The notes under the pieces: model-generated | Database searches by the model: none | Seen by the model: only the letters and a program-made list of their open reading frames with translations | Told to the model about the DNA's origin: nothing | Virus record (IMG/VR): IMGVR_UViG_3300032330_001398 | Reading direction: 5' to 3' (one strand) | Length of the DNA stretch: 64,000 bases | Source of the DNA: a virus | Taxonomy: Duplodnaviria > Caudoviricetes | Part shown: piece after piece, positions 62,628 through 63,491 of the stretch | Layout of the letters: each line of letters starts with the position of its first letter | Numbering within the stretch: position 1 is the first letter of the stretch | Position numbers and translations under genes: made by a program

Positions 62628-63491
62628 TTAAGTCTCCAGAATTAAATTCTTAGCTTGATCTAAAATGTAATCTATACTTCCCGGCGGGATTTTATTTTTG
62701 AAATGTTCATATGCTGATGTTATCATTTCATGATTTGGGTCTTTGGTTATTTCTAACCATCCAACAAAATAGTTCCATATTCTATCTTCTAATATTAATG
62801 GATATTTAACACCGTTTGGGCGATTAAATCTATGTAACCATTTTAATTGTGGTATACAGATTGCTTTACCGCCATTACGTCTAAATTTCTCATGTATATA
62901 TCCTTCTTCTCCACCAAATCCTTTGAAATGGGGATTAAATCCCTGCCAATTTTTTGTTTCGCATGAAAATAATCCTAATCCCATCATTGGTATTTCAAAT
63001 GGTAGTCCAGCTTCATAAGCTTCTTTATTTGAATTCCATATCCCATACATATCTCCTCGCCATTCTGGAGAAAATTCTGTAGAGTAATTCAATAAATCAT
63101 CATAAATAAGCGGACCTTGAACAATGTCTTTACAATCTTCATTATTCTCGTAGTATTCTAGTAATTTTTCTAAACCACCATTTTCTATGAATACGTGGCA
63201 GTCCATTGAAATAGTATATTTACCAGAAGAGTTTGTAAAAATCTCATTTCTTACAGCAGTACTAGTTCTATTTTTAAATGGAATATATTTTCCTTTTCCA
63301 GAAGTCCATCCTTGAATTAGACTTCTAACCGATTCTCCGTGTGGACCATCTGGATTATTGTCTATCACCAATAGTTCATAATCAATATTCTTCAACACTG
63401 GTTGATACATTCTCAAAGCTTGTATGCTAAAATAGACTCCATCAAAGTCATCATACGTTGCCATGCCAATTGTCAATAATTTATCCATCAT
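62628..63491 (-). CDS. GT-A glycosyltransferase with ppGalNAc-T (GT27)-like motifs
   Basis: TIGMATY, LLVIDN, DCH (DxH), PMMGLGLFS, FGGEE, GG....P....H.F. Confidence 0.8.
   Translation of the reverse strand: MMDKLLTIGMATYDDFDGVYFSIQALRMYQPVLKNIDYELLVIDNNPDGPHGESVRSLIQGWTSGKGKYIPFKNRTSTAVRNEIFTNSSGKYTISMDCHVFIENGGLEKLLEYYENNEDCKDIVQGPLIYDDLLNYSTEFSPEWRGDMYGIWNSNKEAYEAGLPFEIPMMGLGLFSCETKNWQGFNPHFKGFGGEEGYIHEKFRRNGGKAICIPQLKWLHRFNRPNGVKYPLILEDRIWNYFVGWLEITKDPNHEMITSAYEHFKNKIPPGSIDYILDQAKNLILET

Follow-up and report, generated by a model that had tools for sequence, protein, structure and literature searches.

Mucin-type O-glycosylation is regarded as a process of the eukaryotic Golgi and is initiated by the polypeptide GalNAc-transferases (ppGalNAc-Ts) of glycosyltransferase (GT) family 27 in CAZy, whose families are defined by sequence. 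Enzymes of family GT60, cytoplasmic polypeptide alpha-GlcNAc-transferases of protists, are soluble and lectin-free. GT60, represented by Dictyostelium Gnt1, is sister to GT27, shares its DxH motif and modifies Ser/Thr of polypeptides (PMC7185993); replacement of DxD by DxH is confined to these two families (Taujale et al. 2020, PMC7185993). Together with GT7 and GT2-CHS, they form one GT-A clade (clade 5) that mixes retaining and inverting enzymes, and an acidic xED residue at the start of helix alphaF serves as the base in inverting enzymes, whereas retaining enzymes vary at that position (PMC7185993). Among phages, virion glycosylation has been reported for mycobacteriophages, whose glycosyltransferases decorate their own capsid and tail proteins, capsid and tail-tube subunits bearing the glycans at their C-termini (Freeman et al. 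2023, as cited in PMC12619734).

We present here P0001, a stand-alone GT-A glycosyltransferase of 287 amino acids (aa) encoded on the minus strand at positions 62628-63491 of a 64,000-nucleotide stretch of viral DNA (IMG/VR record IMGVR_UViG_3300032330_001398; Duplodnaviria, Caudoviricetes), hereafter called the window. It was characterized from its open reading frame (ORF), Pfam matches, an AlphaFold2 model and structural matches. With moderate confidence, we read P0001 from its sequence and gene context as a polypeptide Ser/Thr O-glycosyltransferase acting on Thr-rich virion proteins of the phage. It would be a soluble, Mn2+-dependent, nucleotide-sugar-using enzyme of an uncharacterized family whose nearest structural neighbor is GT27. 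In the cytoplasm of the infected cell, it would place a sugar on the Ser/Thr hydroxyls of Thr-rich linkers in the phage's own virion and fiber proteins, those in the window being the predicted products of 1-381 and 396-2102, and GT4- and GT32-type enzymes encoded at about 48-56 kb could then extend the glycan. We infer a polypeptide Thr/Ser acceptor and a UDP-hexose or UDP-HexNAc donor, as well as the stereochemistry discussed below.

Active site and fold of P0001

The ORF is translated with zero internal stops and encodes the catalytic domain alone. Absence of a transmembrane anchor and of a ricin lectin domain, claimed earlier in a sequence-only reading of the window, was borne out: no transmembrane or other hydrophobic segment was found (the 19-aa Kyte-Doolittle mean peaks at 0.88), and the Pfam scan gave no Ricin_B_lectin match, the domain matches being GT2 and a weak 7C. 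Run at E values up to 1, that scan listed PF00535, PF02709 and PF12897 only; Glycos_transf_2 (PF00535) covers residues 8-119 (E = 1.7e-8, 35 bits; gathering cutoff, 23.3), and Glyco_transf_7C matches residues 173-210 below threshold (E = 0.053). No GT60 model (PF11397, which we take to be the model of that family) was among the matches at this limit, under HMMER filters that drop most matches above an E value of about 0.1. The PF00535 model presumably covers GT27 enzymes too, and because ppGalNAc-T clusters in the ESM Atlas carry PF00535 together with PF02709, the match fails to discriminate GT2 from GT27. NCBIfam gave GT2 matches only, all subthreshold, and PHROGs contained no family for P0001. 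Neither a membrane-association feature nor a DNA-binding feature was found in the protein.

The motif strings DCH, PMMGLGLFS, FGGEE and GGKAICIPQLKWLHRF, on which the sequence-only reading had based its parallel with GT27, are all present where it had placed them. The DxH motif, D97-C98-H99 (63195-63203, minus strand, as for all positions in this paragraph), aligns with DSH of ppGalNAc-T10 and is predicted to supply Mn2+ ligands. PMMGLGLFS (62964-62990) forms the G-loop region and is the counterpart in the alignments of the GT27 motif P(V/T)MAGGLF, with G171 and G173 conserved. FGGEE (62904-62918) is an xED-type motif aligned with WGGEQ of ppGalNAc-T10; the wider GT27 form is WGGEN, as given in that reading. 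GGKAICIPQLKWLHRF occupies 62826-62873, and the C-terminal metal-binding His, H220, lies with the loop HRFNRPNGVKYP at 62799-62834, as placed by conservation, model confidence and the alignment to 2d7i. At the end of strand beta2, the invariant D44-N45 (63357-63362) aligns with the DD of VDDFS in GT27 (2d7i), and we infer a role in nucleotide binding.

The HMMER alignment to human ppGalNAc-T10 (2d7i) is colinear: D44-N45 falls on DD, DCH on DSH, PFEIPMMGLGLFS on PFESPVMAGGLFA, FGGEE on WGGEQ and H220 on the metal-binding His of SRVGHI. Across 29 phage and bacterial homologues, D97, H99, E196, H220, R221, F222, R224, P225, G227 and Y230 are invariant and E195 is conserved in at least 90%; because the key residues are invariant, the motifs are judged to exceed chance. 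By these alignments, the DxH motif and C-terminal His that mark GT27 are present, as the putative Mn2+ ligands D97, H99 and H220. Model confidence drops only in the loop HRFNRPNGVKYP after H220 (mean predicted local distance difference test [pLDDT] score of 61 for the 10-residue block 221-230), which occupies the same place as the flexible catalytic loop of GT27 enzymes.

The xED position differs. Where ppGalNAc-T10 has the Gln of WGGEQ, a nonacidic residue consistent with a retaining mechanism, the P0001 family has the invariant Glu E196 (GGEE), which is the first residue of helix 196-205 (alphaF; DSSP on the AlphaFold2 model) and is a putative base of the kind seen in GT2. The family, as far as its sequences tell, combines a metal site of the GT27/GT60 type with a base position of the inverting type. 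Because E196 occupies the catalytic-base position, the reaction may be inverting and beta-linking, unlike that of the retaining GT27 enzymes, and alpha-GalNAc "mucin-type" chemistry cannot be assumed. This mixed signature, with DxH as in retaining GT27/GT60 and an acidic base as in inverting GT7/GT2, offers a test case for mechanism interconversion within GT-A clade 5 (PMC7185993).

Sequence comparison places P0001 at the margin of GT27. With the single sequence, the top phmmer match among all PDB sequences was ppGalNAc-T10 (2d7i; E = 0.2), and a 26-sequence family profile brought this to a still marginal E value of 0.035 over residues 37-220. For the AlphaFold2 model, made from the family alignment, the mean pLDDT is 92.8 and the predicted template modeling score 0.90. 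The Foldseek comparison proposed in the sequence-only reading returned ppGalNAc-Ts (GT27) as all of the top 50 PDB matches (E = 2.8e-15 to about 1e-11; query template modeling [TM] score, about 0.7). An exhaustive, Foldseek-independent VIA-align search of 48,161 representative chains ranked mouse GalNAc-T1 highest (Z = 23.1; 262 residues; root mean square deviation, 3.0; model residues 2-285 on 114-397, covering the whole GT27 catalytic domain), followed by Toxoplasma GalNAc-T3 (TgGalNAc-T3; Z = 22.4 over 254 residues). The next matches were the chondroitin polymerase K4CP (Z = 18.2), other GT2 enzymes (16-18), B4GALNT1 (16.9) and SunS (11.9). Identity to GT27 in the structural alignments is 15-18%. 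The modeled fold includes the C-terminal 7C subdomain expected of GT27, a feature not exclusive to that family. In the ESM Atlas, predicted Bacillota GT2+Glyco_transf_7C clusters are equally close, with TM scores of 0.81-0.83 against 0.78-0.80 for eukaryotic ppGalNAc-T clusters, and the choice of structures determined so far may account for part of the GT27 resemblance seen in the PDB. P0001 probably works like, and is distantly related to, the GT27/GT60 group. The earlier claim of a GT27-like enzyme is supported by the minimal soluble GT-A domain, the first rank of GT27 among solved structures and the DxH-plus-His site, but sequence similarity is too marginal to place P0001 in GT27; the caveat attached to that claim, that some bacterial GT2/GT7C proteins share parts of its motifs, is borne out by the equal closeness of such proteins in fold.

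P0001 might instead be an ordinary GT2-type polysaccharide or glycolipid glycosyltransferase that extends a glycan, on the host envelope or on a glycosylated phage protein, rather than initiating on a polypeptide. Pfam assigns Glycos_transf_2 only, the N-terminal half is closer to TarP (6h1j; E = 1.3e-5), a GT2 wall-teichoic-acid GlcNAc-transferase, polysaccharide enzymes of GT2 reach the Z values of 16-18 given above, and the acidic xED residue is typical of inverting GT2 enzymes. The predicted bacterial GT2+7C clusters, whose function is possibly in polysaccharide synthesis, equal GT27 in closeness of fold, and other GT genes cluster at 48-56 kb of the window. This explanation is nevertheless unlikely in our judgment: the protein has neither a transmembrane segment nor a membrane-association feature, it carries DxH instead of DxD, and GT27 outscores all solved GT2 structures by about 5 Z units. 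The gene neighborhoods described below, with their PqqD fusions, Tat-signal Thr-rich precursors and phage poly-Thr proteins, would also be hard to explain.

Family distribution and Thr-rich gene neighbors

P0001 belongs to an uncharacterized and abundant family. Matches were found in 2,982 protein clusters at 90% identity, mostly metagenomic and on contigs of up to 323 kb, in 479 confirmed stretches of IMG/VR viral contigs and in 463 loci of bacterial species-representative genomes, including Desulfobulbales (among them cable bacteria), Bradyrhizobium, Hyphomicrobiales, Acidobacteriota and Chloroflexota; 1,706 relatives were found among 1.84 billion cluster representatives. A tblastn search of 50,697 deposited phage records (INPHARED; E limit, 1e-5) gave no match to the family. 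The lineage of the window phage has no close sequenced relative, its best PolIII alpha match being 34% identical. Genome-wide statements here rest on five complete IMG/VR relatives (153-205 kb), in all of which the GT gene is single copy. No published description of the family or of the bacterial cassette described below was found in a search that lay outside most subscription journals.

In a maximum-likelihood tree of phage and bacterial sequences, taken from a quick search, a fully supported branch divides the phage proteins from the 78 bacterial homologues. Two loci from cellular assemblies, L112 ("uncultured bacterium") and L113 (a Pseudomonadota metagenome-assembled genome), have GT genes that nest inside the phage clade and adjoin genes for 643- and 1785-aa poly-Thr proteins; both contigs probably come from a phage or prophage and entered these assemblies at binning. 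The tree bears on a special case of our favored reading, in which P0001 would be a true, horizontally acquired GT27 enzyme making alpha-GalNAc-O-Thr. GT27 enzymes are the top structural matches, the DxH motif, C-terminal His and flexible loop are held in common, and the gene context suggests Thr-rich acceptors. Set against these are the 15-18% identity, the E values of 0.035-0.2, E196 in place of the Gln of ppGalNAc-T10, and a tree with one phage and one bacterial clade in which a eukaryotic affinity is not evident. Its close relatives, at 45-87% identity, come from phages and bacteria (45-59% for the bacterial homologues), and no GT27 enzyme was among the matches listed in the sequence searches. 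We rate this special case as the least probable of the explanations considered.

In the window, two genes on the plus strand encode candidate acceptors. The ORF at 1-381 runs off the window start and encodes the C-terminal part of a poly-Thr protein, with blocks of 6-12 Thr split by KP or RP and followed by a Cys-rich module. The ORF at 396-2102 encodes a 568-aa protein with three Thr-rich linkers between Cys-rich modules, including 23 consecutive Thr residues and some 60 residues of (TTTS)n, and adjoins a fiber-type gene at 2799-5123.

Phage gene context was surveyed in 80 viral loci. In nine of them (L007-9, L038, L063-65 and L070-71), the GT gene lies directly downstream of genes for poly-Thr linker proteins and, in eight of the nine, directly upstream of a gene for a fiber protein homologous to the window ORF 2799-5123; in L046 its neighbors are a capsid-like gene on one side and fiber-like genes on the other. 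The neighborhood in L007 is homologous to the 396-2102 region of the window, and there the GT gene lies between such genes. On the tree, the poly-Thr/fiber context needs at least two changes, with the L007-9 group sister to the clade of the window. All five complete relatives encode proteins with T or TS tracts. In L007, a 201-kb relative, the poly-Thr protein encoded just upstream of the GT gene (8344-10002) has, ahead of its Thr linkers, an N-terminus that by eye resembles a formylglycine-generating-enzyme/sulfatase-modifying-factor domain and may be a receptor-binding head.

About 62 of the 80 loci, and the window, share a different order: RecA ... DnaB-DnaG-dNMP kinase-PD-(D/E)XK nuclease-GT-285-aa protein of unknown function-(ferritin or PAP2)-split PolIII alpha. 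A place in the replication module, from the PD-(D/E)XK nuclease to PolIII alpha and after a T4-gp1-like dNMP kinase, DnaG and DnaB, would suit an enzyme that modifies DNA or nucleotides for restriction evasion, as the T4 alpha- and beta-glucosyltransferases do, and DNA hypermodification by phage-encoded glycosyltransferases is on record (Pyle et al. 2024, as cited in PMC12619734). Such a role is very unlikely here. Glycosylation of hydroxymethyl-pyrimidine DNA is disfavored because no ThyA-type dCMP/dUMP hydroxymethylase was found in the five complete relatives, with control genomes positive, so that the usual hydroxymethyl acceptor is missing; in several sublineages, this single-copy orthologue has structural and poly-Thr genes as its neighbors; the bacterial homologues are embedded in cassettes of peptide-modification type; and the protein lacks a recognizable DNA-binding feature.

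Domain architecture of the bacterial homologues was examined in the best 150 of the 1,706 cluster representatives. Only 8 are stand-alone proteins like P0001, and the other 142 have other architectures, with extensions of at least 100 aa at the N-terminus in 106 and at the C-terminus in 95. The extensions resemble HprK-related kinase A in at least 52 representatives, the PqqD recognition element of peptides that are made by ribosomes and modified after translation (RiPPs) in 26 and GT25 in 61. Cassettes around the fused homologues also hold separate genes for PqqD, HprK-like (ScmC-type) and NTP_transf_5 proteins and, once, TatA/B; PqqD genes adjoin the GT homologue in L001 and L003. Directly upstream on the same strand lie small genes whose products carry a twin-arginine signal, RRxxLK (TIGR01409 above cutoff in several), and a conserved segment ending in ...LPxxWTKPVVxSVIVPAHA or ...WTKPVV.S.IVPAHA, followed by a hypervariable core or tail rich in Thr, such as ...APATTTTTTTTTTTTILLP of Desulforhopalus singaporensis. 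From one to six such precursor genes, with a twin-arginine translocation (Tat) signal and in tandem, occur in 33 of the 78 bacterial loci; examples among L114-L191 and others are L184:6088-6895, L128:6793-7014, L124:1-402 and L003:10067-10588. No NCBIfam model was found for them.

Thr-rich ORFs lie within 4 kb of the GT gene in 44 of the 78 bacterial loci. Near and far flanks served as the control, a reversed-sequence control being uninformative since ACA is identical backwards; 54 such ORFs fell in the near 4 kb, as against 6 farther out in the flanks (binomial p = 5e-9). PqqD and a precursor gene, the two marks of a RiPP system, accompany the bacterial homologues and not the phage protein. 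The cassette looks like an unannotated RiPP-like system for Tat-exported glycosylated peptides, and the bacterial GT homologue would most plausibly glycosylate polypeptides in the cytoplasm, because a peptide-recognition domain is joined to it and Tat-exported Thr-rich precursors adjoin it. Because substrates reach Tat already folded or modified, export is proposed to follow modification.

As read from gene order, the link of the family to Thr-rich polypeptides rests on independent genomic lines, and a polypeptide acceptor for P0001 is supported because phage and bacterial contexts both point to Thr-rich proteins. The sequence-only reading had proposed Thr-rich peptides for a donor screen, and gene context in phages and bacteria points to acceptors of this kind; alpha-GalNAc transfer does not follow from the GT27 likeness, given E196. 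Several observations weigh against our favored reading. In most loci, the gene sits in the replication module and not beside structural genes, which is the main unexplained point; this position may reflect early expression, with the enzyme ready before the late structural proteins. Co-occurrence with poly-Thr proteins was counted only in GT-carrying phages, and gene adjacency cannot separate an initiating from a glycan-extending enzyme. Hidden Markov models for HprK-like, PqqD and GT25 proteins gave no match in the window and two complete relatives, and the phage enzyme, having none of these partners of its bacterial relatives, may recognize its substrate differently. On the sequence side, both E values for GT27 fall short of significance, and on the structural side, the predicted Bacillota clusters are as close as the ppGalNAc-T clusters.

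More broadly, and tentatively, the family could comprise prokaryotic and viral cytoplasmic polypeptide-Thr O-glycosyltransferases, with P0001 as the founding member from phages, that are the closest known prokaryotic structural kin of the mucin initiators, serving to build poly-Thr "bottle-brush" fiber coats in phages and Tat-exported glycosylated poly-Thr peptides in bacteria. If so, many large uncultured phages would carry glycan-coated fibers, with consequences for adsorption, stability and the evasion of recognition. An unannotated bacterial cassette making Tat-exported glycosylated poly-Thr peptides would have been uncovered, and the products of the PqqD-, HprK-like- and GT25-fused enzymes would represent a new class of glycosylated ribosomal peptides. 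The phage enzyme would give a simple experimental model for the recognition of Thr-rich polypeptides by such enzymes and might throw light on how the GT27/GT60 lineage arose. P0001 could also be a compact enzyme for glyco-engineering.

Other genes of the window

Directly downstream of the GT gene, and like it on the minus strand, 61747-62625 encodes a conserved, acidic/basic 292-aa protein with a weak DUF5754 match at its C-terminus; this gene is present in 63 of 81 loci. It is followed by a phage-encoded ferritin-like protein (61215-61736) and by PolIII alpha in two parts, one with the PHP domain and an NTPase (59518-61164) and one with the finger and HHH domains (56938-58497). Between the halves lie an RNase T-type exonuclease gene (58845-59525) and an endonuclease VII-like ORF (58484-58885), all on the minus strand, and the insert may combine a proofreading subunit with a homing-endonuclease insertion.

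The further GT cluster is also on the minus strand and comprises a GT32-like gene with a DXD motif (55910-56575), three GT4-type genes (52161-55913) and a weak GT2 gene (48687-49451). Several ORFs of 245-285 aa with no Pfam match stand among the GT genes at 46383-56575, and this whole region is a candidate source of glycan-extension enzymes. On the plus strand, two giant ORFs at 17161-34632 encode proteins of 2061 and 3760 aa, which suggests that the phage has a very long tail and belongs to an uncultured lineage.

Comparison with described glycosyltransferases

Among described enzymes, P0001 is most like those of GT27 (ppGalNAc-T1, -T2 and -T10 and Toxoplasma GalNAc-T3), with which it shares the full-length GT-A domain, DxH, the C-terminal His, the P.M.GGLF G-loop, GGE and the flexible loop after the His. 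Thr-rich polypeptide acceptors would be a further common trait, judged for P0001 from gene context. GT27 enzymes are type II membrane proteins with a ricin-type lectin domain at the C-terminus, whereas P0001 has no transmembrane anchor, stem or lectin domain, is of phage and bacterial distribution and is proposed to work in the cytoplasm instead of the Golgi.

The glycocin GT2 enzymes, SunS and its relatives, are also of the GT-A fold, glycosylate ribosomal peptides in the cytoplasm and are conceptually like the bacterial PqqD-fused homologues. SunS is a much weaker structural match to P0001 (Z = 11.9) and modifies Cys or Ser residues of structured peptides. It uses helical domains of its own, not PqqD or HprK modules. 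The stand-alone Bacillota GT2+Glyco_transf_7C enzymes of the ESM Atlas (293-311 aa) resemble P0001 in size and fold; they were not detected as sequence homologues in the family searches. Relative to the mycobacteriophage system, in which glycans are carried at the C-termini of virion subunits, the predicted acceptors of P0001 are long poly-Thr linkers.

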